This document shows, in pieces, positions 4,140 through 37,702 of a stretch of DNA of 64,000 nt. The notes under the pieces are model-generated. The model searched no databases. It saw nothing but the letters and a program-made list of their open reading frames with translations, and had not been told where the DNA came from. Origin of the DNA: a phage; sequence record PZ583739.1; one strand, 5' to 3'. Every line of letters starts with the position of its first letter. Position 1 is the first letter of the stretch. The position numbers and the translations under genes are program-made.

Positions 4140-6854
4140 TTAAAAGTCAAACATATCAAAAAGAGTTGCTTTCTTTTCGTAATCAACCTTTGCAGCTTCA
4201 GAGAAACCTGTTAATGGCTTAACAAAAGTCTTCTGGAACAGTATGTTGTAGTCCATCCACTGCAGAACCTGGTCACGGATTTCAATCGGGAGTTCAATCC
4301 CAGATGGCCATGCAATCACGGTTTCACCAAACGGGTTACCGACTTTAAGAGGAAGTACATACACCTTTTCCCCTTCCATGATTTGTGGAACAGTCTTCAG
4401 ACCTTTAGTTGCACGCATATATGCAAGCACACCTTTGATATGAGCCGGGCACTTAAATCCAGGGAAACCGCCTTCATTATATTTCTGGATGTTGTTAACC
4501 GATGATACACCTGCGATGGTCATGTAGTTAAGCTCATTAAATTCCTTATTGAATTCCTTGAAGTATGTCTGCAGAGATTCTTCACCTTCTTGCAGCATAC
4601 GGCGGATACATTCTTTCAGAGCTTTCTGACATGCCTTTGGAGTACTCGACTTTTGAGTTTCCAGACCCATGATTTTCAATTTCGGAACAGCATATCGTGT
4701 GCCTTCCATATCGTACACGTTCAGTGCATAACGCTTCTTCGCCGTCCAGAATCCACCCACACCCTTAGAACCCAGCGGAGGACATGCAATCGCTTCACGG
4801 TCCATAAACATAAGGTGCTGTTTGTTGTTCATGTATTCAGCCAGCTCACGGAAAGCTTTATCGATTGCCGGTTCCAGACGGTCTTTCGCAAACTTGTCCA
4901 TGAAGTCAACCAGGTGGTTTGTATCACGGAATTTAGATTCGCCACCAACCTTTTTAATCAGGTTATCGCACTGGATATAAATGGAGTCAGTATCGCCATA
5001 GAACACATAAGTTTCGCCGCTTGTCCCACAGACACTATCGAAGTATTCGTTAACTTTACGCTCAATCCACTGCAATGCAAGTTGTCCGAAAGATGTAATC
5101 GCGGTTGCATTTCGCAGGTCAAAGTAACGGAACCAGATATTGCCCAGAGCGCCATAACAACTGTTGATAAGCAGTTTACGGTTAATCTGTGCGGTCATGC
5201 CTGCAACTTCTTCCATCTGCGCTTTGTACAACATACCATTCAGGACTGTTTGATTCAGACCATGCAGGGCCGTTTTCATATTGTCATCAAAGTCATGACG
5301 ATAATCAACTTCTGGTTCGGTTGTGCCAGTTCCTGGATTACGCAGAGCTTCCTTAATCAGTTCACCATTACGTTGAGCCGCAAGCATATAGCCTTTGTGC
5401 TCTTTACGCTGATTAAACACCTTGGTGACTTCTGTCGGAATAATACCCGCAACATCTTTAAAATACATCATACCATTTGGAGCACAACTAAATGTATCAG
5501 ATGGACGGTCAGCAGTTCCTGCGATGTATTCATACATCGGCGCTGGGGCAAATGAACCGGCAATCGTTTCTGGACTGATATTAATCTGTCGGATGATGCT
5601 TGGATACAGAGATGTTAAGTCACAGCTCATCACATATTTGTACGCGTTCGGAATAGGTTCCTTAACAAATGCACCAGGGAACGATTGACGAACATGCGAT
5701 TTGGTTTCCGGAATGACTTTGTTTTGAGTCTTCAGGCTGTTAAAGATAATCGCATCCCAAGTTTTGATTGGGCTGAATACAGACTGAATCTGCATTTTTG
5801 CGTAATAACCCATTGACTGACTCAGGTTAATAAACTGCCGCTTACGGTCAATCTGCACAACACGATAAACGTCGATGATGTTATAAGAAATATACCGCTG
5901 GTGATTTGATTCACGCAGTTTAGAAATCGGACCATCATACGGGAGTTTACCAACACCCAGTTCAGATTCCGCAACATAATCCAACGAATAAGACGGTTGG
6001 TTTGTGAAGCTGAACTTTTTATACAGGTCCAGATAATCCAGAACAGAGATACCCAGAATCTGAATGATTTCTTGTTCTTCACCAAAGCCGTTGTTAATGA
6101 CCTTAACTTTTGTACGACGATGTGGGCTCAGACGTTTTGCCGTAGCTTCACCAAATACATTTTTAAGACGGTTGTAGATATATGGAATATCAAACTTCTC
6201 GATGTTCCAACCGGTTAACATAACCGGAGTTTTCTCGTTCCAGAATACCAAATACTGCTGGAGCATTTCTTCTTCTGAATCGAAAGCCATATAAACAATT
6301 TTTTCCAGGATTTCTTCAGGGACTTCATCACCACCGTCTTCCTGCAGCTTAGCAGCAATATCAATAGACCATTGCTCCACAGTGGCGTATGGTGAGCCCA
6401 AAAGGTCAAAGACATAGAATTTATCGTCTACCGAATCATAGTGCGTCAGGGCATCAATAGGGTGACGTGCTTCAGACGGTTCAGGGAACCCATCAGGAGA
6501 TGTCACCTCGATATCGAAGTTAGCAACACGGATTTTACTTGAATCATATTTGATTTCGTGTGGGTAACGGTCGGACAAGTATGCGAGTTTAAAGTCATCC
6601 ATACCCATAACTTCGAGGCCCATGTCATTCATTCGCTTCATCCACTGGGATGCATCACGCATGGAATCGAATTCTTTTTTCACACAACCTTTATTATAGA
6701 TGTCTGTATACTTTGCAGCCTGGCCTTCCCGGGCGTGCATAAACAAGCATGGGGCATAAGGGATTTCACGAACACGTTCATGACCATTCTTGTCAATATA
6801 TCGTTCGAGTAGGTTGTCACCGATTTGTTCGATAGTTAAATAAAATTCTTGCAT
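4140..6854 (-). CDS. 43: DNA polymerase gp43 (family B, with 3'-5' exonuclease)
   Basis: 904 aa; exo motifs FDIEV, Pol motifs DLTSLYPSII, KLLINSCYG, YGDTDS; C-terminal ...KKATLFDMFDF as in RB69/T4 gp43. Confidence 0.98.
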   Translation of the reverse strand: MQEFYLTIEQIGDNLLERYIDKNGHERVREIPYAPCLFMHAREGQAAKYTDIYNKGCVKKEFDSMRDASQWMKRMNDMGLEVMGMDDFKLAYLSDRYPHEIKYDSSKIRVANFDIEVTSPDGFPEPSEARHPIDALTHYDSVDDKFYVFDLLGSPYATVEQWSIDIAAKLQEDGGDEVPEEILEKIVYMAFDSEEEMLQQYLVFWNEKTPVMLTGWNIEKFDIPYIYNRLKNVFGEATAKRLSPHRRTKVKVINNGFGEEQEIIQILGISVLDYLDLYKKFSFTNQPSYSLDYVAESELGVGKLPYDGPISKLRESNHQRYISYNIIDVYRVVQIDRKRQFINLSQSMGYYAKMQIQSVFSPIKTWDAIIFNSLKTQNKVIPETKSHVRQSFPGAFVKEPIPNAYKYVMSCDLTSLYPSIIRQINISPETIAGSFAPAPMYEYIAGTADRPSDTFSCAPNGMMYFKDVAGIIPTEVTKVFNQRKEHKGYMLAAQRNGELIKEALRNPGTGTTEPEVDYRHDFDDNMKTALHGLNQTVLNGMLYKAQMEEVAGMTAQINRKLLINSCYGALGNIWFRYFDLRNATAITSFGQLALQWIERKVNEYFDSVCGTSGETYVFYGDTDSIYIQCDNLIKKVGGESKFRDTNHLVDFMDKFAKDRLEPAIDKAFRELAEYMNNKQHLMFMDREAIACPPLGSKGVGGFWTAKKRYALNVYDMEGTRYAVPKLKIMGLETQKSSTPKACQKALKECIRRMLQEGEESLQTYFKEFNKEFNELNYMTIAGVSSVNNIQKYNEGGFPGFKCPAHIKGVLAYMRATKGLKTVPQIMEGEKVYVLPLKVGNPFGETVIAWPSGIELPIEIRDQVLQWMDYNILFQKTFVKPLTGFSEAAKVDYEKKATLFDMFDF

Positions 6855-6939
6855 TTGATTTCCTTTATAGTCGAGTGATTGACTTTTGTTTTATGACTTG
6901 ACGCTATTATACTACAAAAGGGACCGAAGTCCCTTTGCT

Positions 6940-7167
6940 TTAAATTTCTATTGTACGACGTTCGATAGTCGGATTACCATTTTCATCTTTAGTTCTAACC
7001 ATAGCCTGGAAGACTCTCTGACCAGGATGCAATAATTTATTGAGTTCCTTTTGAAATTCTATTTGAAGTTCTTCGGAAAGGTCAAAAATAGTTTGAGTTG
7101 GGGAAAGTCCGTATACTTCTTTAAGGCGTTCACATGTTTCAATTTCATGCTTCATATCAATTACCAA
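6940..7167 (-). CDS. Hypothetical protein, 75 aa
   Basis: ORF between gene 43 and regA, co-directional; no recognisable motif. Confidence 0.4.
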   Translation of the reverse strand: MVIDMKHEIETCERLKEVYGLSPTQTIFDLSEELQIEFQKELNKLLHPGQRVFQAMVRTKDENGNPTIERRTIEI

Positions 7168-7525
7168 TTGTATATTTGGCTACGAGCTTCCAGTCGTCTT
7201 TTTGTTTGAATGAGATAACACGGAAGTTGTTTGTTACTGCGAACAATTCATTATGCTCTTCTTCTTTGATAGCAATTAAGCCCCAGTCTTCGAGCAGTTG
7301 AGCAATGGAATCACGGCGCTGATAGTCTTCGCCGTCAATATCCACCTGACGACCATCCATGCGCAGCATTTCTTTGAAGTGAACAATATAGTAACGACCT
7401 TGCTTTTGGAGGATGTGGCAGCTCTGGTACAGTACACGGTCTTTATTATTTGCGATGCCCATACGGGTCAGAGTTTCTTTAACTTTCAGGAAGTCTTCAG
7501 GTTGCTTTAATGTAATTTCAATCAT
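7157..7525 (-). CDS. regA: RegA translational repressor
   Basis: 122 aa; MIEITLKQPEDFLKVKETLTRMGIANNKD...NNFRVISFKQK, near-identical to T4 RegA. Confidence 0.96.
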   Translation of the reverse strand: MIEITLKQPEDFLKVKETLTRMGIANNKDRVLYQSCHILQKQGRYYIVHFKEMLRMDGRQVDIDGEDYQRRDSIAQLLEDWGLIAIKEEEHNELFAVTNNFRVISFKQKDDWKLVAKYTIGN

Positions 7526-23131: not shown

Positions 23132-23812
23132 TTATTCATTATTCTTTTTCCTAGCATCAGAAGCAGCTTTTCTTCTAGCTCTGGTCCTTTCTAAATCAGC
23201 GGCAATCAAATTAGCTATATTAGTAACCGGATTACCAAATTCATCATAAGTAATATATTTCCAAGCATATCCAAATGTATGATTTCTCTCATTAAGAAGG
23301 CATCTTTTAATAGCACTGCCTGCTTTATAAATTGAAAGAAATTTAGCTGCATCTGGTAAATAATCAAAGGTTTCTACCAATTCACCTGAACTTAAATCAA
23401 ATGCGCCAAAAAGCTCAATGGTGTATTTACTCCTATCAAGACTGGCTTTAGCTTCATGCTTTAAGTGGTTTATTTCTTTTAGAATTTTAAGGTCTAATTG
23501 TCCTGGTATTTTATCTATCTGTACACCCATTCTAGATAAAGCATATCCCATTTTATAGTTTCCTGATTTGGCCAACCAATAGTGGGCCATAATATGGCTT
23601 TCTATACTTAGATTTACAAGATTCCATTTAGACGTTTTAAATTCAGGAAATAACGATTTAGGTAATATATGGTGAGACTCGGTTTTACCTTTTATTAAAG
23701 GTCCGGAAGACTCTATTAAAGAGAAATAGTTTTCAGCAAATTGCCTTATTGGCAATTTGCTTTTAAGAAGTTCTTTAATTTCGTCTAAGGTTTTAGTAGG
23801 CTTAACGGTCAC
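23132..23812 (-). CDS. HNH homing endonuclease (Mob-like), free-standing
   Basis: 226 aa; ESHHILPKSLFPEFKTSKWNLVNLSIESHIMAHYW matches the HNH motif of T4 Mob endonucleases. Confidence 0.65.
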   Translation of the reverse strand: MTVKPTKTLDEIKELLKSKLPIRQFAENYFSLIESSGPLIKGKTESHHILPKSLFPEFKTSKWNLVNLSIESHIMAHYWLAKSGNYKMGYALSRMGVQIDKIPGQLDLKILKEINHLKHEAKASLDRSKYTIELFGAFDLSSGELVETFDYLPDAAKFLSIYKAGSAIKRCLLNERNHTFGYAWKYITYDEFGNPVTNIANLIAADLERTRARRKAASDARKKNNE

Positions 23813-24296: not shown

Positions 24297-24560
24297 TCAT
24301 TTGAAATATGCTCGCAGTTGGTCAAAGCCACCAATATGACTTCCATCAGGGGCAAATACTTGCGGCATGGTCAAACCAATTTGAGATTCGCGACCAAGCG
24401 CAACCAGGAGTTGAGCAATCTTCTCATCATCAAACACACCTTTTTCCGGCATAACATTGATGAACTCGTAAGGTTGTTTTTTAACGTCAAGTAGACGTTT
24501 TGCATTATCGCAGAAAACGCAACGATGGATGTTTGAATCATAGCCATATACTTTAAACAT
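24297..24560 (-). CDS. nrdC: Thioredoxin/glutaredoxin NrdC
   Basis: 87 aa; [24 protein letters not shown]...[26 protein letters not shown], near-identical to T4 NrdC. Confidence 0.93.
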
Positions 24561-24964: not shown

Positions 24965-25295
24965 TTTCTTCTCGCTCAAATTTATGTTTACAATGTCTGC
25001 ATTTATAACGAAGATTACTAGTCTGCCAATGGACCAACTGGACCTGTTCAGTTCCACATTCTGGACAGTTAGGAACACGTTTAGAAGCACGTTCACGGCG
25101 ACGAACTATAGCCATTACCATATCCCAATCGGGAACCTGACTATAATCGTCACAACCATGAATCTTTCCTAACTGCACAAGGTCAACACCCTCAGCGTTT
25201 TCAATAAATTTTAAAAGACCTTTATTAACCCCCGCGGCGGGGGTCCATTCTGGAAATGCAGTTTCTGCAATATCTTCAGCTAAACGTTGTTTCAT
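24957..25295 (-). CDS. Hypothetical Cys-rich protein, 112 aa
   Basis: C-terminal CPECG...CRHCKHKF (zinc-ribbon-like). Confidence 0.4.
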   Translation of the reverse strand: MKQRLAEDIAETAFPEWTPAAGVNKGLLKFIENAEGVDLVQLGKIHGCDDYSQVPDWDMVMAIVRRRERASKRVPNCPECGTEQVQLVHWQTSNLRYKCRHCKHKFEREEND

Positions 25296-26281
25296 TTCAG
25301 CAGCTCCAGAGCCTGTTCCAGTTTATCCAGACGATTGGTTGATTCTTCCCAAAGTCGCTTGGCTTTAGTATAGTCTTCAGTTGCCTTTTTATTAACAGCA
25401 AGAGCTTTATTATACGCCGTTTCCAGAGCAACAATTTCAGGCGCTTTTTGTTCCACTGGCTCATTATTCAGATTATCAATCAGGTCTTCAAGGGTGGTTT
25501 CTTGCGGTGCATTCATAATTTCCTCACTTTTCTTTTTATAAATTTCTGCAACAGTTGGTTGTTTTGCGCATTTAACTTCACGCAATGTCACCACAATTTT
25601 CCAACCTTTCCAACCATGAGTACTGGTGATAGGGTCTACTTTAATTTTTTCAACAGTGCGCATATAGTTAAGGGCACACTGCATCTGTGAAGTAAGCGTG
25701 CTCGCAGCATCAAAATACTTTTTGACATTTTCTGGAGTAGCCGCTGGCGTAAAGAACGCATACTTAACTGTAATAATTACCTGATTTTCACCAGACTCTT
25801 TAACATTTATCATGTGCTCAGCCAAATGGGAGATAGTGCGATAATCGCTACCCATCAATTTTGTCGCTGATTTGATGATAGACATTTTGTTATCTCTGAA
25901 TTCACGAGCCCAGCAATTTGCGAATTCAGAAACAGTATAGCCTTGTTTATCAAGGTAGTATTTTTCAACATCACCAAACCAATGATATCCAATTGTACCT
26001 TTACCATGTCTGGATTCAACGCCAAACTTATTAAGAAGGTCTTTATTAACCAGGTATGCCAGGACTCGGGAACCTTTAAAAGTTTTCTTGATATCATCGT
26101 TACCAGCACGACTCGCAATAGTTGCAATGTCTTTCTTGAAGCGACCAGATGCAACAATCGTCGAGTCAATCTGATTTAACCAGAAATTGATAATTAAAAG
26201 GATAGCCGATTCACCTATTAATGGTTTTACTTTTGTGTCGATAGTGGTGTTAAAGGCCCGGATATATTCGTTACGTGTCAT
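25292..26281 (-). CDS. Hypothetical protein, 329 aa
   Basis: Large ORF; C-terminal coiled coil ...LDKLEQALELLK. Confidence 0.5.
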   Translation of the reverse strand: MTRNEYIRAFNTTIDTKVKPLIGESAILLIINFWLNQIDSTIVASGRFKKDIATIASRAGNDDIKKTFKGSRVLAYLVNKDLLNKFGVESRHGKGTIGYHWFGDVEKYYLDKQGYTVSEFANCWAREFRDNKMSIIKSATKLMGSDYRTISHLAEHMINVKESGENQVIITVKYAFFTPAATPENVKKYFDAASTLTSQMQCALNYMRTVEKIKVDPITSTHGWKGWKIVVTLREVKCAKQPTVAEIYKKKSEEIMNAPQETTLEDLIDNLNNEPVEQKAPEIVALETAYNKALAVNKKATEDYTKAKRLWEESTNRLDKLEQALELLK

Positions 26282-26339
26282 AGTGTTCTCCTCATAAAGT
26301 AGGAATTCATTATACTCCCTCCATCCCTGGAAGTAAACA

Positions 26340-27275
26340 TTATTTTAATGCTTTGATTGCCGCTTGCAATTTATTGCGTTGTTTTTCCATATTCTTGATG
26401 CGATTCAGAACATCCTGGATACCCTTTTTCTCATCTTCAATCAGACCATTTAAGCGGTTAACTGATTCCCGGATAGCATCAGCATGATAGCTCTCAATAG
26501 GCTTCATTGGTGGGTTAAAGATTTCAAGAGAGCTGTTTGGCTGGATTTTCCATTGATACATATTTTTAACTTCCAGTGGTGAAATTTTAGTCTGGTCGTA
26601 AGATTTAAACTGACCTGCAAATGCTGGGCCATATGATGCGGTAGGGATACGTTCCATTTCTGGTTCCTTTTTATCTTCTGGTTCATTTTTCTCTTGATAA
26701 GGAGCATAAGATAAAAGATATTCTTTAGTCAATTTAATATCAATGGCTATAGTTTTGAGGAATTTTTCCGTTTGGTGGATATAATTTGTATCTTCATCAA
26801 ACGTGTACGATTCAACAGCATGGCGCATATAAAACAGCGCAATACCCATAACCTCTTTAAAGTTATGACAAAGAGCAACATCGCCCTTGGTAGTTGGTTT
26901 GAACTTAATCTGTACACCATCATTCTTAATATTGATAATCAAGTTGTCAGAGTTAAAATTATAGTTCTTGATGTTAACCGGAGCTTTGCGAATACGAAAT
27001 CCGCCGGCCAGAATTTCCTTGATACTCTTACGAACCGTGGCACCAAACAAAAACGCTGGGCGACGGCAGTAATCATTCAGAGAGTTAATTCTTACAATAC
27101 GTTGACCATACCCCTGGGTAGCAGAACCTGATTTGATTTTGCCAAAGTTAACCAAAGAATTCATTGCGATAAGACGAGTCACACGACCGTCATGTGGTTC
27201 ATAACTACTAGCGTATTCTTTACGTGTTTTAATTTTCATATCATAGTCCAAATAATTTTTCATAGAATTTAGCAA
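26340..27275 (-). CDS. Hypothetical protein, 311 aa
   Basis: Large ORF; C-terminal coiled coil ...QRNKLQAAIKALK. Confidence 0.5.
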   Translation of the reverse strand: MLNSMKNYLDYDMKIKTRKEYASSYEPHDGRVTRLIAMNSLVNFGKIKSGSATQGYGQRIVRINSLNDYCRRPAFLFGATVRKSIKEILAGGFRIRKAPVNIKNYNFNSDNLIINIKNDGVQIKFKPTTKGDVALCHNFKEVMGIALFYMRHAVESYTFDEDTNYIHQTEKFLKTIAIDIKLTKEYLLSYAPYQEKNEPEDKKEPEMERIPTASYGPAFAGQFKSYDQTKISPLEVKNMYQWKIQPNSSLEIFNPPMKPIESYHADAIRESVNRLNGLIEDEKKGIQDVLNRIKNMEKQRNKLQAAIKALK

Positions 27276-27456
27276 TAGGCCAACACACCATCATAATTGC
27301 CAAAACAAACCAAAGCAGAGGCCATACTAGTGTAATGAATACTGCATCATAGCTTGATTCAATTTCGATTGGATTCCAATCACCCGATTTATGAATGATA
27401 ATGGTCGTCATGAATCCTAGCACAAAGTAAAGGAGAATAAAACCTACAATTTCCAT
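27241..27456 (-). CDS. Small membrane protein, 71 aa
   Basis: Two hydrophobic helices. Confidence 0.35.
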   Translation of the reverse strand: MEIVGFILLYFVLGFMTTIIIHKSGDWNPIEIESSYDAVFITLVWPLLWFVLAIMMVCWPIAKFYEKLFGL

Positions 27457-27540
27457 ATTAACCTACAATATTTGAGAATATCAGCCACAGAATACCTGTG
27501 GCAACGATTGCATAACCAAGAACAGCAAGCCATTCCATAA

Positions 27541-28389
27541 TTAATCCTTAAGCAATTCAATAACGTTCATCAGTTTCTGACGTTCGGCTTTCGCTGCGCT
27601 ATTCAGTCCTGACAGACGGAAAATTTCATCATCTTGCTGCTGGATGGTGATGTTAAGCTCTTCAATCTGTTTAGTGAAAAGCTCAATTTGCTCTGAATAT
27701 TTTTCATTGCTTCGCACTGGAACAGGTTCCATTTTAGGAGCTTGTTCAATGGGGCTCTCGACTTCAACTTGGTCTTTAATTTGACATAGTTTAATACGCT
27801 GGACGCCTCCAGTTTTAACATCATAAAAGGTAAGAATGCCGTGACATTCCAGTACAGACAATGCCAAACGAAGATGGAATTTCCAATTATCATATTGACA
27901 TCCACTAAAAGAAGAAATACTGTATTCACCTTCTTTTTGACCTTTAATAACATTAAATAGTTTATAATCTAAAGAATTATTGGTTTTAAAGGTCATTTGT
28001 TTATCTTGACCGCTTGCTAAACGAGCGCCTAATGCCAATAAACGGCGCTGGTTTTTCCAAAGGTCTTTAACCACTTCATCAAACGTCATGGTGCTAATCG
28101 CACGACCATAAAGGTCATAGCCTTTATTATAATTTTTAAGTAGAATTTTGGCATTAGCACGAGACAACATACCTGAACGATGAAGAGATTTCATGACTCG
28201 GTCTTCTAATGTAAGAAGACCAGTGGTCTTTTCAAAGATTTTAGTGAATTCAGCGGAATTAGTACAAACATTGAACTTATTCCACATCATATATAAAACA
28301 TTTAAAACCACATCTTTAGTGCTTGGAATACTGTTAAATTTAACAACTTTTTTAACTTCAGAACGAATTTCATTAATTGCTTGTGACAT
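27541..28389 (-). CDS. Hypothetical protein, 282 aa
   Basis: Large ORF; C-terminal coiled coil ...RQKLMNVIELLKD. Confidence 0.5.
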   Translation of the reverse strand: MSQAINEIRSEVKKVVKFNSIPSTKDVVLNVLYMMWNKFNVCTNSAEFTKIFEKTTGLLTLEDRVMKSLHRSGMLSRANAKILLKNYNKGYDLYGRAISTMTFDEVVKDLWKNQRRLLALGARLASGQDKQMTFKTNNSLDYKLFNVIKGQKEGEYSISSFSGCQYDNWKFHLRLALSVLECHGILTFYDVKTGGVQRIKLCQIKDQVEVESPIEQAPKMEPVPVRSNEKYSEQIELFTKQIEELNITIQQQDDEIFRLSGLNSAAKAERQKLMNVIELLKD

Positions 28390-28452
28390 AATAATTTCCT
28401 CAATAGATTAATCAAAGGTCAGAACCATTATACCATCCTTGGTATAAAGCGT

Positions 28453-28977
28453 TTATGCGAGAACCGTCTTTAAACGCTCTTCAAACTTCTGAAGGAGTAC
28501 CTGGCGCTCTGCTCTTTGTTTGGTATAGGTTTCAATACGCTCTGAAGTGAGATTGTATTGTTCATTAACTGATTCCCGCATGAATTCAGGAATCTCTTTA
28601 CATGCTTTGATTTCATTGAACTTATCAAGCACCGCTTGTTGTTCAGCAATCAGACCATCATAATATTGGATATCTGATTTGATGTTTTGTACATCAGATT
28701 CAGTAGGCATATTTTTCTTTGCTCTTGTCGCCTGATACTCAGCATTAGTCTCTCTTGACCAGAACAAAGAGCGGTTTTTGTTGGTGTTTTTATACACATC
28801 AACAATACCAACTGAATCAACAGTCACAATCCAGTTCCAGGCGTTTTTATAAGTCTGACCACCTGATACTGTAATCTCACCTGCACGAGCAACATCATTA
28901 AAGAACTTACTTTGTGCTTCTGATTTAAAATTACCATTATTGTAATTAATCAGATTAAAGATTGATTTGGCTTCCAT
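28453..28977 (-). CDS. Hypothetical protein, 174 aa
   Basis: ORF directly downstream of early promoter at 29014-29042. Confidence 0.45.
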   Translation of the reverse strand: MEAKSIFNLINYNNGNFKSEAQSKFFNDVARAGEITVSGGQTYKNAWNWIVTVDSVGIVDVYKNTNKNRSLFWSRETNAEYQATRAKKNMPTESDVQNIKSDIQYYDGLIAEQQAVLDKFNEIKACKEIPEFMRESVNEQYNLTSERIETYTKQRAERQVLLQKFEERLKTVLA

Positions 28978-29679: not shown

Positions 29680-30426
29680 ATGATTTTGTCCGGAAGAACT
29701 ATTGATGAACTCAATGAAAAAGTCCAGGCCGCCTTGGCTGATAATTGGTATTTGTTTGGTTCTACTGTGGTGTTGCCAAATACACCTACGGATAGCAAAG
29801 AACGTTTTTTCCAAACTATGTCCAACTCGGAAACTCAGATACCGGGCCCGCCTGGACCAAAAGGAGAACCGGGTGTGTCCGGGCCCAAAGGAGACCCAGG
29901 CGGGGCTGGAAAATCTTCTTATCAGATATGGCTTGACTTGGGGAATACAGGAACTGTTGATGATTTTTTAACTGATACAGCGGGAAAGAGGGAAAAATCC
30001 GAGGTGTTTTGGAGTGGTATAAACGTTCTATTAACTAATGGTGCGACTTCAAACATAATTAGTATTTTAAAGGGGATTCCGCCGACAGCAGGGACTCTAT
30101 CTCCGTTTTTTAGAACCGCTGATGATAAGTTGTGGCCATATAACCAAGACAGAAGCCTAATGTTTAAACTCAACCTTATTGGTAATTTTACAGGAGCCTC
30201 GCAAGCTCGAAGTATAACATTAAATTTCGTTGGAACCAACGGAAACACTTATATACAGAATCGTCCGGAAAATGCTACAGATATTTTGTCTTTTACGACG
30301 TTCTTTAGCATTGATAAAGATGGGGCAATGGCAACCAATGGTACAGCTATAACTGTTACGCCAAATGGCGGCAACTTTACAATAACCTCTGCATTGTTAG
30401 TAGCCGAACAAACAGTGACTTCGTAA
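29680..30426 (+). CDS. Collagen-repeat fibre-like protein, 248 aa, on the opposite strand to its neighbours
   Basis: Strong RBS AAAGGAGAAAG 7 nt before ATG; seven Gly-X-Y triplets (GPPGPKGEPGVSGPKGDPGGAG) followed by KSSYQIWLDLGNTGTVDDFL, a motif I associate with phage tail-fibre proteins; Asn/Thr/Gly-rich C-terminus. Confidence 0.6.
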   Translation: MILSGRTIDELNEKVQAALADNWYLFGSTVVLPNTPTDSKERFFQTMSNSETQIPGPPGPKGEPGVSGPKGDPGGAGKSSYQIWLDLGNTGTVDDFLTDTAGKREKSEVFWSGINVLLTNGATSNIISILKGIPPTAGTLSPFFRTADDKLWPYNQDRSLMFKLNLIGNFTGASQARSITLNFVGTNGNTYIQNRPENATDILSFTTFFSIDKDGAMATNGTAITVTPNGGNFTITSALLVAEQTVTS

Positions 30427-30448: not shown

Positions 30449-30688
30449 TTAGATTGCACTCCAAAAATTATGGAATCTTATAGTATTGATAGCCCAGTTA
30501 GCAAACCTGCGAGTTTGCTTGGAAGTTGGTTTGCATGTGTACTTGATATTGACCCGACGACCAGTTTCACGACAGACTGCTTCGAGATACCAGCGGCGAC
30601 CTTTATGAGGTCTTCCATATGATAAGAAGACCTTGATTTCCTGGTTATCGATAATAAGAGTTGTGGTTGTCAAGATATACCTCTTCAA
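30449..30688 (-). CDS. Hypothetical basic protein, 79 aa
   Basis: ORF downstream of nucleotidyltransferase gene. Confidence 0.35.
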   Translation of the reverse strand: MKRYILTTTTLIIDNQEIKVFLSYGRPHKGRRWYLEAVCRETGRRVNIKYTCKPTSKQTRRFANWAINTIRFHNFWSAI

Positions 30689-31655
30689 CGAACTTGTTCC
30701 AGAACTTCATGTCCACCTTCTCAGGCATACCGTTCTTATGAGCCTGGATGGCCAGGACTTCGACTTCATCGACAGTATTTTCCAACAGGCCTTGGACGAC
30801 TTTGAAAGGCATATCGCCAGCTTTGATTGCTTTAATAATAGAAGCGTTTTTGAGCGGATAAACCAGGTCACCAGTTTGATAGATTTCCTTCAACTGGTAT
30901 CCAGCACGATAAGCATGGCTCAGAGCTTTCCAGTCAATACCTTCATTGGCTTCAGCCTTACGAGCACGTTCACCATATTCTGCATCGAGCTTATTCAGAG
31001 ATTGCTTAAGCTCAATTAAAGACAGGGTGGTTTGGTACTTACGTCCAAGAACAGTATAGAACGTTTGAGGGCCTGTTTTCTCATGATTATGGAATACCCA
31101 TTCACAGAACTCATTTTCAGGGAGTCTGTGTTTGATATCTTCTACCTTAGTTCGACGTTGCTTAGTTGAACCGTCTTCTTGATAATCAACCCACTGTTCA
31201 GGAATCTGGTTAACGATTGCCAGTACACCACGTAGAGCGGCCAATCGAGAACCTTTAACACCATATTTGGAAGCTTGCTTACGGACATAACCCAAATAGG
31301 CTTTCATGTTAGTTGTATAGAACCGTGAACGGTTATCCTGGATAAACTTCCATACATCTGGTAAATCGGATTTGACAACCAGGTCAGCCGGGGTGTGAAT
31401 CATATCCAGAGCAACGGTTTCGCCTTCGGCCGCCAGTTTAAAGAAATATTTCAGACTATAAAGTTCATGGTCAACATCATCTTTTGTATTTTTGGTGGCC
31501 GTGTTATTCGTGTTCAGGTTGGTATGGTTCATCGCCGTCCCAAGTAGAATATCACGAGGATGTGGAACAAAGATTTCTTTAAAATCGACATCAGATTCTG
31601 AGGTACTTGTTCCATAAAGGTGGCTACCGAAGTAGCCTTTCATAACTGTTCTCAT
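30645..31655 (-). CDS. Predicted Pol-beta-superfamily nucleotidyltransferase, 336 aa
   Basis: Start trimmed to ATG at 31655 with RBS GAGGA; N-terminal GSHLYGTSTSESDVDF fits the GS-x(9-13)-DxD NTase signature. Confidence 0.55.
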   Translation of the reverse strand: MRTVMKGYFGSHLYGTSTSESDVDFKEIFVPHPRDILLGTAMNHTNLNTNNTATKNTKDDVDHELYSLKYFFKLAAEGETVALDMIHTPADLVVKSDLPDVWKFIQDNRSRFYTTNMKAYLGYVRKQASKYGVKGSRLAALRGVLAIVNQIPEQWVDYQEDGSTKQRRTKVEDIKHRLPENEFCEWVFHNHEKTGPQTFYTVLGRKYQTTLSLIELKQSLNKLDAEYGERARKAEANEGIDWKALSHAYRAGYQLKEIYQTGDLVYPLKNASIIKAIKAGDMPFKVVQGLLENTVDEVEVLAIQAHKNGMPEKVDMKFWNKFVEEVYLDNHNSYYR

Positions 31656-32104
31656 TTTTTGTCCTCGAAGTGGATTACAGGACACATCTTAGATTTACGA
31701 GCTTTAATGTATTGAATAACGATGTTTTCTTTAGTTTCCTTTCCTTCACGTTTGGCTAGAATACGTTGCCATTCCTTTTCTTCTTTATGTAAATCATACC
31801 AGGACCATAAATTCATTAGACCATACATTAAACCAAATGCTACCGCCAGAATAAGAGCCAGTGTAGCTAGTCCTAAAATAAACCCTAAGCCTAAACCGAC
31901 CGGGGTGCTTAATACAAAGAAATGCTCTAATACACCAGCCCCAGCGACAGTTAATCCAAAACCCATACTACCTGCAGCAACAGCACAAACAAAACAGGCC
32001 CAAACCATTTTCCAGAAATAAGCACACAATGAGTGTGGGCGAGAATTGCGGTCATAAAATTTATCGTGGAAACGAGCATGCCAAGAGTTTGTATTGATAA
32101 TCAT
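31652..32104 (-). CDS. Multi-pass membrane protein, 150 aa
   Basis: Three or four hydrophobic helices (Gly/Ala/Leu-rich), charged C-terminal tail; stop overlaps NTase start. Confidence 0.45.
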   Translation of the reverse strand: MIINTNSWHARFHDKFYDRNSRPHSLCAYFWKMVWACFVCAVAAGSMGFGLTVAGAGVLEHFFVLSTPVGLGLGFILGLATLALILAVAFGLMYGLMNLWSWYDLHKEEKEWQRILAKREGKETKENIVIQYIKARKSKMCPVIHFEDKK

Positions 32105-33888: not shown

Positions 33889-34272
33889 TTACTCTAGTGT
33901 TAACAGATACTTAGTCTGAAAGAAAACTCCAACGATATCGTCCAGAGTCGATTGAATAGCCTTGGGTACAACTTTATAGACTCTTTCCGAGCTTTTAATC
34001 ATTTCATCTAAAAACAAAATTGTATCTTTCGGCAAGTCCGAGGCGGACGGTAATGCAGCTTTGTATTGTTTCCCGCTGTAACCTAACCATTGCTCACTGA
34101 ACTGGTCGAGTGGACCTTGGATTTCTGTGAAGTAGAAATCATAAGCTTTATGGCGGGCGTAACTTTTGGTTTCAAGATGGGCGGACTTAAAATAAGCCAA
34201 AGAGACTAACAACCACCCAATATATGAATCCACCTCAGACCCACGACCCGTTACGAAATCATCAAATTTCAT
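33889..34272 (-). CDS. Hypothetical protein, 127 aa
   Basis: ORF downstream of rI. Confidence 0.4.
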   Translation of the reverse strand: MKFDDFVTGRGSEVDSYIGWLLVSLAYFKSAHLETKSYARHKAYDFYFTEIQGPLDQFSEQWLGYSGKQYKAALPSASDLPKDTILFLDEMIKSSERVYKVVPKAIQSTLDDIVGVFFQTKYLLTLE

Positions 34273-34555
34273 CTTCCAATTTTACCTTCATTAATTTAGC
34301 GTACTCTCTCGCCGCAGCTTTACCATCGCTTTTGCAGGTAATTTCAGTTTCGCATTGGCTTTTGTTGTTCCATTCAGTCTTGATAAACGCCCAGAACTGT
34401 TCGGATTGGTGCACGCTTGGTTCTTTGAATTGCGAATAAATCTTCATCGCACTATCTGCATATTGGGTAAACTTCCCATCTGTTGCAGAGGACAGATTTG
34501 GACCTAAACAGCCCAGGATTATTAGACTTAATGAAAGTCCTCGAATAAGGTCCAT
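34262..34555 (-). CDS. rI: RI lysis-inhibition antiholin-like periplasmic protein
   Basis: 97 aa; N-terminal signal/anchor, then SEQFWAFIKTEW...C...C...YAKLMKVKLEDEI resembling T4 RI; adjacent to tk as in T4. Confidence 0.6.
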   Translation of the reverse strand: MDLIRGLSLSLIILGCLGPNLSSATDGKFTQYADSAMKIYSQFKEPSVHQSEQFWAFIKTEWNNKSQCETEITCKSDGKAAAREYAKLMKVKLEDEI

Positions 34556-34910: not shown

Positions 34911-35483
34911 TCAGCTTGTTAATTCGAGCCAATGTTTTCTGCACAAAGATACGTACGATTCATTCCCACCGACCAATACTTGCTCGCCGTCCTTTACAGC
35001 AGCACCGTCGATTACTCGAGCGGTCATGGTTGCTTTCCGGCCGCAATGACAGACGCCCTTTAATTCAACCAGTTTATCCGAAATAGCCAGAAGTCTGGCC
35101 GAACCGGGAAATAATTGACCCCGAAAATCTGTTCTTAGCCCGTAACACATAACGGGGATATTGTAATTATCAACCACTTGAGCTAACTGGTCAATTTGCT
35201 CTGGTAACAAAAATTGAGCTTCATCGACCAGGACACAATGGATATCCTTTTGAGACTCGGCCCATTTATAGAATTCAAACAGGTTCATGTCGGCCGTTAC
35301 CAGGTTTGCTTCCTGGCTAATACCGATGCGTGATTTAATTTCGCCTTCCGAGTCCCGATTATCAATAACAGGTTTTAGCAAAAGCACACTCATTCCACGC
35401 TCTTTATAGGAATAAGCTGCAGTCAGCAATGAAGCTGTTTTGCCTGCATTCATTGCTGCGTAATGATAAATTAAACTCGCCAT
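34911..35483 (-). CDS. tk: Thymidine kinase
   Basis: 190 aa; P-loop MNAGKT, ...VDEAQF..., C-terminal zinc-binding CHCGRKA...C. Confidence 0.95.
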   Translation of the reverse strand: MASLIYHYAAMNAGKTASLLTAAYSYKERGMSVLLLKPVIDNRDSEGEIKSRIGISQEANLVTADMNLFEFYKWAESQKDIHCVLVDEAQFLLPEQIDQLAQVVDNYNIPVMCYGLRTDFRGQLFPGSARLLAISDKLVELKGVCHCGRKATMTARVIDGAAVKDGEQVLVGGNESYVSLCRKHWLELTS

Positions 35484-35492
35484 ATCACCTTC

Positions 35493-35678
35493 TTAAAGCG
35501 TATTCACATAAGCTATTAATTCGTTTTCTTTCGCATCAAATCGATTGGCAAATTCTTCCTGATGGTCGGCATCTATCGGGCCATATTCATCATAAAAAGC
35601 ATTTGCTTCCGTATGCTCATCCAAAAGCTCATGGATAAGCTCAAATAATCTACTTTTCTGACTAATGCTTAAACTCAT
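35493..35678 (-). CDS. Hypothetical acidic protein, 61 aa
   Basis: Small ORF upstream of tk. Confidence 0.35.
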   Translation of the reverse strand: MSLSISQKSRLFELIHELLDEHTEANAFYDEYGPIDADHQEEFANRFDAKENELIAYVNTL

Positions 35679-35881
35679 TTCGGTTCCCCATATCGCACAA
35701 ATTTAGGATGTTCGCAATAACCAGAATGAAAACCTTCACCCTTATGATTAGAACATCCTTTATTAGAACAGTACCACCAGTAATCATATTCGCAATTCAT
35801 TTCATCATTGCATAAAGCTGCGATTACTGGCCATTCACATTTTTCACATTTGGCCGTTTTAAGAATTCGGGCTTGGCTCAT
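35675..35881 (-). CDS. Hypothetical Cys-rich protein, 68 aa
   Basis: CEKCEW...CNDEMNCEYDYWWYCSNKGC (zinc-binding-like). Confidence 0.4.
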   Translation of the reverse strand: MSQARILKTAKCEKCEWPVIAALCNDEMNCEYDYWWYCSNKGCSNHKGEGFHSGYCEHPKFVRYGEPK

Positions 35882-36332
35882 AATCCACCACTATTAAATC
35901 AATATCAGGAGTAAACATGTCGATTAATTTAGAAACCTTATCCCAATCGCCGCCAGCAATACCACAACCAATACGAGGAATATAAATTACCGGTTTAAAC
36001 AAAAGGGTTTCTGCCTGTAGATTTAATTCTATCATACAATTTACTAAAGCGCCATAATCAAGATTAGGGCCCGGTTCATATTGGGTGTACAAATTATAGC
36101 ACATACCAAACCCAGTAGGTTTATGTTTAAAAACAATAGACATATCACCGAGTTTTCCTCTGTAACCATAGTCGGTTGAGGTTTTATCTATTTCTAAAAC
36201 TTTTGGATAAGCCTTCGCCAACTGTCCAGCTACGCCAGAACCCATTGTGTGAAAGCAGTTGCAACCATGTGCAATAATATTGCCTTGAAGAAAGAGGGCG
36301 ACGATATCGCCCTTAATATACTGGGTAATCAT
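35859..36332 (-). CDS. Macro-domain protein (predicted ADP-ribose binding/hydrolase)
   Basis: 157 aa; GDIVALFLQGNIIAHGCNCFHTMGSGVAGQL resembles the macro-domain N-terminal core; Gly-rich loop GCGIAGGDW later. Confidence 0.6.
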   Translation of the reverse strand: MITQYIKGDIVALFLQGNIIAHGCNCFHTMGSGVAGQLAKAYPKVLEIDKTSTDYGYRGKLGDMSIVFKHKPTGFGMCYNLYTQYEPGPNLDYGALVNCMIELNLQAETLLFKPVIYIPRIGCGIAGGDWDKVSKLIDMFTPDIDLIVVDYEPSPNS

Positions 36333-36688
36333 TTAGAGTTCAATCCTCTATTATATGAATCCACTAACCTGTCAACCATACTGGTGCAGGCCGCCTTATA
36401 TTTTGCACTTGACAGAATGCAATCCATTTCAAATAGTTTCTTTTCATATTTGTTGGATAATACATTCTTTTTCAAAAGCGTATGTTCAACATCATTTTGG
36501 CCATCTTTATAGGCTGCGGTGAGCTTGGCACTGAACCGGATTACACAATCCACATTGCTTGATGCGCAATAATCTTTAGCCGTCCTCGTTGCATATTCTA
36601 CGATGCTGTTGTTGTCGTCGCTCTGTACTGAAGCTATTCCTCCCATGCTGAATACTAACCCTATGGCTAAAGTGATAACTCTTACCAT
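36329..36688 (-). CDS. Secreted hypothetical protein, 119 aa
   Basis: N-terminal signal peptide MVRVITLAIGLVFSMGGIASVQS. Confidence 0.45.
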   Translation of the reverse strand: MVRVITLAIGLVFSMGGIASVQSDDNNSIVEYATRTAKDYCASSNVDCVIRFSAKLTAAYKDGQNDVEHTLLKKNVLSNKYEKKLFEMDCILSSAKYKAACTSMVDRLVDSYNRGLNSK

Positions 36689-36690
36689 TT

Positions 36691-37233
36691 TTAATCCACC
36701 GTTTTTAATAGGCCTCGTGATTTTAAGTAGTTAGCTTTTTCTAGGACCTGTGAAGCATACGTATTACCAGCTTTCACATTCCATCCTGCGTTATATGATG
36801 ATAGTGTTTTTCTTATATCCCCCTTATGAATATTCAACCAGTATGAAAGCTCAATATAAGCCCAGCGCGCACTGTTCTCTCTCTTGCTTATCATCTTGAT
36901 TATTTCTTTATCTGTCATTGTCCACCCAACCTGTTTCACGCGTTCGCGCACGGTTGGAAGATAATTTTGGAATATACCATATGCATGATGCTTATCTTTA
37001 TTTAATCCAGTATTAACCCCAGCAGAACTTTCCTGCCAGGTTAAACCAGCCATGATATATCCCAAACCATTACGTTGGTGTGGATTTTCTTTGTACTTGC
37101 CATTTTTCTGGAACTGCTCTCCAAACGCATAAGCATATTGGAGGTTCCCCATTTGTTCATTACTGAAAGTAGGCTCTACGCTATGGGCAGACATACTAAC
37201 TGTCAATAGTAAGGTGGCGATTACTTTTTTCAT
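36691..37233 (-). CDS. Secreted lytic-transglycosylase-like protein (SLT fold), 180 aa
   Basis: Signal peptide MKKVIATLLLTVSMSAHS; GLTWQESS...AYGIFQ matches the family-1 SLT E-S...G-hydrophobic-x-Q pattern. Confidence 0.5.
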   Translation of the reverse strand: MKKVIATLLLTVSMSAHSVEPTFSNEQMGNLQYAYAFGEQFQKNGKYKENPHQRNGLGYIMAGLTWQESSAGVNTGLNKDKHHAYGIFQNYLPTVRERVKQVGWTMTDKEIIKMISKRENSARWAYIELSYWLNIHKGDIRKTLSSYNAGWNVKAGNTYASQVLEKANYLKSRGLLKTVD

Positions 37234-37243
37234 GAATTCCCCA

Positions 37244-37702
37244 TTAGATATAAATCACTTTTGTGCTAATTTTTCCTTCCAGACGATTAGAGTTAACAAA
37301 CGCCATACGACAACACATGGTCGGAGACTTCCCAGGAAGAGCTGGGTTAACTGTCATTCCTAACCATAGGTTCTTGTCTGTGATTTCCAGACGAAGTGGA
37401 CGGTAGTTCACATTCGGGTCAATTTGTGCTTCAACTTCCGGGAGCGGTTTCATCTCCAGGAATTCAACGATTTCTTTTACATGTGGTGTGATTTTTCCAA
37501 ACAAGTCAAAAACATATTGTTCATCAATTTCACGTTGGATTGCACGGTCCAACAGGTGCGGACTGTACTTAATGAAGAATGCCTCAAGGCCTGCTTCTTT
37601 ACAAGCCTTGTTGATAGCATTATTAATTTTGAGGAACTCCGTTTCAAAAATGCGACGAAGTTTATTGCGGCGAATGTAAACACTTGAATCGATAGTAGTC
37701 AT
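37244..37702 (-). CDS. regB: RegB endoribonuclease
   Basis: Trimmed to ATG at 37702 with RBS GGAG; MTTIDSSVYIRRNKLRRIFETEF...YSPHLLDRAIQREIDEQYVFDLF...CRMAFVNSNRL, collinear with T4 RegB (152 aa). Confidence 0.9.
   Translation of the reverse strand: MTTIDSSVYIRRNKLRRIFETEFLKINNAINKACKEAGLEAFFIKYSPHLLDRAIQREIDEQYVFDLFGKITPHVKEIVEFLEMKPLPEVEAQIDPNVNYRPLRLEITDKNLWLGMTVNPALPGKSPTMCCRMAFVNSNRLEGKISTKVIYI

Follow-up and report, generated by a model that had tools for sequence, protein, structure and literature searches.

Profile comparisons join NrdC.4, NrdC.5, and NrdC.6 of a Gaprivervirus phage into one family of candidate counter-defence proteins

In a 64,000-nucleotide stretch of phage DNA (record PZ583739.1; hereafter "the window"), three large open reading frames (ORFs) of 329, 311, and 282 amino acids (aa) lie on the minus strand between nrdC and rI. 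Homology searches and gene order identify these ORFs as orthologues of the T4 proteins NrdC.4, NrdC.5 (Pfam family DUF7235), and NrdC.6. Sequence profiles, together with structural models of NrdC.4 and NrdC.6, further show that NrdC.3, NrdC.4, NrdC.5, and NrdC.6 form a single family of diverged paralogues, restricted to T4-like phages (Straboviridae). The only functional datum for these families comes from T4, where a clone carrying deletions did not plate on ECOR17 or on MG1655 with ECOR17 dsr1, and nrdC.5 supplied in trans restored its plating on Dsr1 cells (Srikant, Guegler, and Laub, eLife 2022, PMC9391042). On balance, we lean towards the view that the three ORFs encode paralogous early counter-defence proteins, each using a coiled coil for self-assembly and a diversifying head to engage a host target.

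The window comes from a T4-like myovirus that belongs to the genus Gaprivervirus. Positions 25000-28600 of the window are 98.0% identical to Escherichia phage vB_EcoM_RZ, and the same stretch matches 584 phage records. An earlier first-pass annotation, made from the letters of the window, had placed the three ORFs and quoted their C-terminal sequences exactly, and nrdC and rI do flank the interval to which it assigned them. Its choice of T4 nrdC.10 and nrdC.11 as comparators was mistaken, the orthologues being NrdC.4, NrdC.5, and NrdC.6: as read from its sequence, T4 NrdC.10 carries a Walker-A-like GAAGIGKT motif, and NrdC.11 is a nucleotidyltransferase whose orthologue in the window (30645-31685) matches RlaP.

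The 329-aa protein aligns with T4 NrdC.4 over its full length (BLASTP, 49% identity over 334 aa, E = 6e-115) and falls in phrog_1435 (5.4e-138); its assignment to PF26897 is made via its homologues, all 61 clusters of which carry this domain. The 282-aa protein shares 47% identity with T4 NrdC.6 across 201 aligned residues (residues 50-245 of the window protein, E = 5e-52), including the invariant motifs NYNKGYDLYGR and NQRRLLALGARLA. It falls in phrog_2257 (2.5e-121), and PF26899 is likewise assigned through its homologues, being found on all 104 clusters. The middle protein, a member of the Gaprivervirus/Dhakavirus branch, shares only 27% identity with T4 NrdC.5 (BLASTP, 302 aa, E = 5e-24). 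It spans the whole DUF7235 (PF23882) profile, positions 1-307 of 307, with E = 7.6e-128 and a score of 426.7 bits (cut-off 30), and also matches phrog_2351 (9.9e-107). T4 NrdC.5 itself matches the same two models (5.3e-126 and 420.6 bits for DUF7235; 1e-168 for phrog_2351), and the middle protein is therefore a bona fide member of the NrdC.5 family. The two proteins also share a C-terminal ...QR.KL..A...L[KN] ending and a gene position between nrdC.4 and nrdC.6, an order found in phages SP18 and RZ too. NrdC.3 is absent from this phage.

All three families are narrow. Among 5.8 billion proteins, the NrdC.4, NrdC.5, and NrdC.6 families comprise 61, 47, and 104 clusters at 90% identity, with members in 554, 541, and 742 phage records, respectively. 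Nearly all of these are phages of Escherichia, Shigella, or other enterobacteria, and each record looked at in detail is a Tevenvirinae phage. Homologues of nrdC.2 to nrdC.9 are labelled "thioredoxin" in several hundred GenBank genomes, a label that apparently spread because the gene names begin with nrdC. Searches of Pfam, PHROGs, and NCBIfam gave no thioredoxin-family match for any of the three proteins.

The relationship between the families is remote. Pairwise BLASTP among the three window proteins returned nothing significant, and narrow family profiles reached hhalign probabilities of only 1.5-8%. We then compared broader profiles, built from 20 loci and with the coiled coil cut off, for which 11 unrelated gene families of the same loci served as controls (hhalign score ≤23.9, probability ≤2.3%). 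The hub of the resulting network is formed by NrdC.4 and NrdC.3, the product of the fourth large gene of the T4 block (308 aa, ending in ...LRNAIEVLK). These two align with a probability of 98% (E = 2e-14) and are both included in phrog_1435. In a search of 1.84 billion representative proteins, the NrdC.4 profile retrieved NrdC.3 at E = 7e-8; this search yielded 7 proteins, namely NrdC.4, NrdC.3, and fragments, with no cellular relatives and neither NrdC.5 nor NrdC.6. Coil-trimmed NrdC.3/4 profiles aligned with NrdC.5 over 124-158 collinear columns (probability 74-89%, E = 3e-5 to 2e-6) and with NrdC.6 over 144-196 columns (43-52%, E about 2e-4). NrdC.5 and NrdC.6 are joined through intermediates only, with NrdC.3/4 as the hub. 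The pairwise HHalign comparison proposed in the first-pass annotation was thus informative from NrdC.3/4 to each of the other two families when broad trimmed profiles were used, but not for NrdC.5 against NrdC.6 directly.

Equivalent motifs recur in the aligned segments of the three groups. One trio reads SRLLSYLVNKDILxKFG / TRxIAxxxLxDFG / GxLSRxNAKxILKNYNKGYDLYG and a second ILKSAxKxxxGDxR / LLATAxRI / LLALGARLAxGxDKQM; the segments also hold a conserved helix ahead of the last beta pair. A further connection is provided by gp092 of Pectobacterium phage PM2, a 309-aa protein encoded at the same position after nrdC.2. In a database of 749 ORFs, hidden Markov models (HMMs) of both NrdC.6 (E = 1.8e-5) and NrdC.5 (E = 0.009) matched gp092, and no unrelated ORF fell under E = 1 with any family HMM. 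Head-level links therefore remain without the coil, and the relationship extends past the generic coiled-coil composition that the first-pass annotation had named as its refuting outcome; the evidence for homology is in the heads, not in the tail. PHROGs already groups NrdC.3 with NrdC.4, and the three ORFs are ordinary members of catalogued families. The joining of NrdC.5 and NrdC.6 to NrdC.3/4, and the nomination of NrdC.3, NrdC.4, and NrdC.6 as counter-defence candidates, were not found in the databases and literature searched. NrdC.8 (28453-28977, 174 aa), which ends in a helix, was considered as a truncated member and rejected (hhalign ≤0.5% to every family), and a tblastn search started from the NrdC.5-like protein of Mosigvirus stayed within that genus.

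Predicted structures point in the same direction. AlphaFold2 (AF2) models were made for NrdC.4 (predicted local distance difference test, pLDDT, 77.4; predicted template modelling score, pTM, 0.63) and NrdC.6 (pLDDT 79.5, pTM 0.67). Both models present five N-terminal helices and a small hairpin, then two or three helices, a beta-beta-alpha-beta-beta arrangement, a linker with pLDDT <50, and a long terminal helix. In NrdC.4, the corresponding regions are a basic helical head (residues ~1-106), an alpha/beta domain (~107-236), a low-confidence linker (237-280), and the C-terminal helix (281-328). When the DSSP strings of the two models were aligned, the score lay 4.2 standard deviations above element-order permutations and was reached by none of 200. 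As modelled for these two proteins, the shared plan is a basic, mostly helical head, a small alpha/beta domain, a disordered and indel-rich linker, and a C-terminal amphipathic helix of 45-55 residues.

Foldseek searches of BFVD with either model returned only uncharacterised T4-like phage proteins of ~300-375 aa. The NrdC.4 model matched the NrdC.6 model of phage Sf25 (E = 4e-4), and both models shared full-length neighbours in Enterobacter phage IME523, Pectobacterium phage PM2, and Acinetobacter phages fHyAci03 and Acj61 (E = 2e-8 to 1e-4, template modelling (TM) scores 0.34-0.50). Together with the coil-trimmed profiles and PM2 gp092, the shared element order and common neighbours support the divergent paralogous family that the first-pass annotation had put forward. 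In Acj61, p120 and p121 (35452-37472 of locus L019) are adjacent genes of 304 and 330 aa located just past nrdC; the NrdC.4 model neighbours both of their BFVD models (E about 1e-7), and the NrdC.6 model only that of the 304-aa gene (E = 1e-4). These neighbours suggest that the family may extend into the Twarogvirinae. As a sequence bridge, p120 and p121 gave no profile signal despite their structural neighbourhood and syntenic position.

The heads also invite a different functional reading. They are strongly basic (isoelectric point 9.6-10.5), which would also suit nucleic-acid binding and to that extent tells against a counter-defence role, and their conserved helix and small hairpin (SRLLSYLVNKDILxKFG and equivalents) look superficially winged-helix-like. 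Joined into dimers by the coil and binding nucleic acid through the basic head, the proteins could then be regulators that reshape host or phage gene expression early in infection, the anti-Dsr1 effect of NrdC.5 being indirect. The early-type and middle-type promoter-like sites ahead of the genes would suit such regulators. We nevertheless regard this reading as unlikely. A winged-helix or other DNA-binding head found no support in any of the resources consulted: Pfam and NCBIfam yielded no DNA-binding or helix-turn-helix family, a Foldseek search of the PDB found no similar fold (best E = 0.03, with no winged-helix protein among the top hits), and PDB sequence searches produced no helix-turn-helix match, the 282-aa protein having no match and the other two only weak ones (E >0.005), these being designed helical proteins and a coiled coil of Smc. 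Moreover, the nrdC block can be deleted without a growth defect on laboratory hosts (PMC9825161), and the one known phenotype hinges on a specific defence system (PMC9391042).

The C-terminal ends, which had first drawn attention to the three ORFs, are heptad-patterned as described. Across their last 42 residues, a and d positions are continuously hydrophobic, with a score reached by 0-53 of 2000 composition-preserving shuffles (above 97-100% of shuffles across the three proteins), and AF2 places terminal helices at these ends in NrdC.4 and NrdC.6. The heptad register, counted from the C-terminus, is identical in NrdC.3, NrdC.4, NrdC.5, and NrdC.6. For the NrdC.5-like coil, none of the 2000 shuffles reached the observed score, with V, I, I, I, R, I at the a positions and L, E, V, M, L, L at d. 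The NrdC.5 and NrdC.6 coils both have I/V at a, L at d, and one buried Arg. Beta-branched residues at a combined with Leu at d are the classic pattern of parallel dimers, and by this rule the NrdC.5 and NrdC.6 coils are probably parallel dimers.

How alike these ends are between families depends on the position considered. In right-justified profile comparisons, the last heptad, A-[IL]-x-x-L-K, was the top or near-top block in each family pair, and the similarity reported in the first-pass annotation stands for this heptad. It does not hold for most of the tail, and we rejected the notion that the whole coil is specifically alike between families, as outside the last heptad it does no better than heptad-block permutations. 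For the greater part of the tail the likeness thus appears largely generic, the coils upstream of the last heptad being family-specific. A terminal motif defined after the data had been seen, [AV][ILV]xxL[KN]x{0,1}-COOH, is carried by these 3 alone among the 194 ATG-started ORFs of ≥60 aa in the window.

Within each family, by comparison, the coil is the most conserved segment (mean pairwise identity 0.72-0.75 vs. 0.51-0.71 elsewhere). In the NrdC.4 family it reaches 0.75, against 0.51-0.61 elsewhere, and it is also 0.75 in the NrdC.5 family; one homologue whose head is ~30% identical retains the tail almost unchanged. This conservation acts at the protein level, because synonymous differences are abundant and DNA repeats linking the genes are absent. 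Between the NrdC.6 tail and its T4-type homologues, amino-acid identity is 0.76-0.80 and 58-60% of the identical codons differ synonymously; synonymous differences are present in the NrdC.4 tail as well. For these reasons, we discarded DNA-level causes such as an embedded promoter or recent recombination.

Several of these observations weigh against common ancestry and would favour three unrelated proteins that acquired C-terminal coils independently, their likeness being convergent and generic. Pairwise BLASTP is silent and narrow profiles barely respond; the last 49 residues compared between families reach z-scores of only 0.1-2.5 against heptad-block permutations; the link from NrdC.3/4 to NrdC.6 lies under the usual hhalign confidence threshold; and direct profile similarity between NrdC.5 and NrdC.6 is absent (hhalign 0.6%). 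The Foldseek TM-scores are also modest (0.3-0.5), as each model comprises several domains connected by flexible linkers. Separate origins are nevertheless very improbable in our assessment, since coil-free heads align collinearly to the NrdC.3/4 hub well above all 11 controls, element order and some BFVD neighbours are common to the two AF2 models, PM2 gp092 bridges NrdC.5 and NrdC.6, and the genes lie side by side, are similar in length, and have in common a terminal motif not seen elsewhere in the window.

The set of paralogues varies from phage to phage. T4 encodes NrdC.3, NrdC.4, NrdC.5, and NrdC.6; Mosigvirus SSE1 encodes NrdC.3, NrdC.5, and NrdC.6; the present phage and Dhakavirus encode NrdC.4, NrdC.5, and NrdC.6; phage Manna has two members and PM2 one. 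Individual copies are also damaged or rearranged. The T4 reference NrdC.6 (NC_000866; 10067-10894 of locus L003) is a 275-aa protein ending in EELIFLFNNMMMKFSDYLD, a sequence that corresponds to the EELNISIQQYDDEIFRLS... of its relatives read in the -1 frame; a 1-nucleotide deletion has therefore removed the whole C-terminal coiled coil, which is intact in the window copy. This frameshift arose either by mutation of the laboratory strain or through an error in sequencing. The nrdC.5-like gene of Shigella phage SP18 is split into two coding sequences (5290-6194 of locus L001) and nrdC.4 of Escherichia phage G8 (locus L014) into ORFs of 193 and 158 aa; judged from their sequences, both look like pseudogenised family copies in otherwise intact phages. 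NrdC.6 of Sf25 carries an internal duplication. In Salmonella phage Manna (PP987310, Manna_094; 6203-7240 of locus L017), residues 1-262 of NrdC.6 are fused in frame to the last 83 aa of NrdC.4 at a shared "DEI", with nrdC.5 and most of nrdC.4 deleted. In T4, nrdC.1-6 were a removable block in a genome-reduction study (PMC9825161). Variable sets, damaged or rearranged copies, and removability therefore mark nrdC.4-6 as accessory genes.

This variability bears on a further alternative, that the paralogues assemble through their similar terminal heptads into one hetero-oligomeric complex acting as a unit. The identical register, the last a/d positions common to all families (L, I/L, L), the adjacency and common orientation of the genes, and the position of the coil as the most conserved part of each protein are all in keeping with such a complex. 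It is highly unlikely, however, given that the set of paralogues changes between phages and shrinks to one in PM2, that the T4 reference NrdC.6 has no coil altogether, that the coils upstream of the last heptad are family-specific, and that T4 NrdC.5 alone in trans was enough for rescue on Dsr1 cells, though other paralogues may have remained in the phage.

Under the counter-defence interpretation, NrdC.4, NrdC.5, and NrdC.6 would be transcribed from the nrdC block early or midway through infection and be dispensable in laboratory hosts. Each would self-associate through its C-terminal coiled coil, as the heptad pattern suggests, and its fast-evolving globular head would then bind and neutralise a host factor. 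Coil conservation would be explained, in this proposal, because self-assembly must be kept as the heads diversify in an arms race. In the NrdC.5 lineage the target would be the SIR2-type Dsr1; its counteraction has been shown genetically for T4 NrdC.5, direct binding is presumed, and the role is extended tentatively to the 27%-identical orthologue in the window. NrdC.4 and NrdC.6 might, by analogy, be sister inhibitors with other targets, which makes all three proteins plausible counter-defence factors.

Dsr1 is a SIR2-domain defence protein that depletes nicotinamide adenine dinucleotide. According to a 2026 preprint, its tetratricopeptide repeat sensor recognises phage major capsid proteins (PMC12803255); another paper of the same year still calls Dsr1 poorly characterised. 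On anti-Dsr1 factors and DUF7235, the literature searched held nothing past the 2022 eLife paper. A functional analogue is DSAD1 of phage SPbeta, likewise a phage protein that inhibits a defence-associated sirtuin. Its target is DSR2 rather than Dsr1 and it comes from an unrelated Bacillus phage, which makes it a lead by analogy and not a claim of family membership.

Three points count against the counter-defence proposal as applied to the window. At 27% identity to T4 NrdC.5, the middle protein may not have conserved anti-Dsr1 activity; no link from NrdC.4 or NrdC.6 to any defence system was found; and the first half of the NrdC.4 helix has Tyr, Tyr, and Trp at a positions and Ala at d, and is no canonical zipper. 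For the window itself, our results are mainly a clarification, its three ORFs being unremarkable orthologues of accessory genes already known from T4. The nrdC.x genes are still "hypothetical" even though T4 is the best-studied phage. If NrdC.3-6 form one family with one anti-Dsr1 member, the other three would become concrete candidate inhibitors of other defence systems, and a conserved coil with a variable head would offer a structural handle on how NrdC.5 disarms Dsr1. More speculatively, and with rather little confidence, NrdC.3-6 could be seen as modular immune-sensor inhibitors, in which the conserved coil is a "handle" for self-assembly or docking to a common hub and interchangeable, fast-diversifying heads each act against a different defence protein, Dsr1 in the case of NrdC.5. 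The block would then be an anti-defence island derived from one scaffold, gaining new specificities by duplication and head-tail recombination of the kind seen in the Manna chimera.

Coordinates of the genes, coil-coding regions, and promoter-like sites are collected in Table 1. The nrdC.5-like gene probably starts at the ATG at 27239 (MKIKTRKEY..., 299 aa) rather than at the TTG at 27275, because nearly all homologues begin there and it lies one base past the stop of an upstream 71-aa ORF. The two promoter-like sites fit, as consensus matches, early or middle expression of nrdC.4 and nrdC.6. The site upstream of nrdC.4 we take to resemble the T4 early-promoter type, and the one upstream of nrdC.6, which departs from the TGCTTtA box at one position, is presumably akin to a MotA-dependent middle promoter of T4.

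Table 1 Features of the nrdC-rI interval discussed in the text (window coordinates).
Feature	Position	Strand	Details
nrdC	24297-24560		Flanking gene
NrdC.4 orthologue, 329 aa	25292-26281	-	ORF read and homology
NrdC.4 C-terminal helix coding region	25295-25441	-	Residues 281-329, ...RLDKLEQALELLK; AF2 helix 281-328, heptads
Promoter-like site TTTACT-N17-TATAAT	26309-26337	-	Directly upstream of nrdC.4; consensus scan, 10/12 matches
NrdC.5-family protein (Pfam DUF7235), 299 aa from likely ATG at 27239	26340-27239	-	Frame open to TTG at 27275 = 311 aa
NrdC.5-like coiled coil coding region (predicted)	26343-26489	-	Residues 263-311 (311-aa numbering), ...QRNKLQAAIKALK; heptads
NrdC.6 orthologue, 282 aa	27541-28389	-	ORF read and homology; domain order as in NrdC.4
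NrdC.6 C-terminal helices coding region	27544-27708	-	Residues 228-282, ...ERQKLMNVIELLKD; AF2 helices 228-258 and 264-281
Putative promoter site CGCTTTA-N12-TATAAT	28427-28451	-	Upstream of nrdC.6; sequence read
rI	34262-34555		Flanking gene

Two small hydrophobic ORFs separate nrdC.6 from the nrdC.5-like gene on the minus strand. The one at 27459-27539 encodes 26 aa (MEWLAVLGYAIVATGILWLIFSNIVG), and the one at 27241-27456 encodes the 71-aa, membrane-type protein (phrog_7899) whose stop, one base ahead of the likely nrdC.5-like start, suggests translational coupling. No Rfam families or transfer RNAs were detected in the region. In the slot of T4 nrdC.10, a 248-aa ORF (29680-30426) lies on the plus strand, opposite to all its neighbours. 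In its product, a collagen-like G-X-Y run (GPPGPKGEPGVSGPKGDPGGAG) occurs together with a tail-needle-knob domain of the Sf6 type (PF16532, E = 8.5e-33; phrog_1030, 1.5e-66), and the gene, present in vB_EcoM_RZ and not in SP18, is an odd structural-type gene within an early region. The interval between gp49 and nrdC holds an HNH-type homing endonuclease of 226 aa (23132-23812, minus strand; phrog_655, 3.5e-28).

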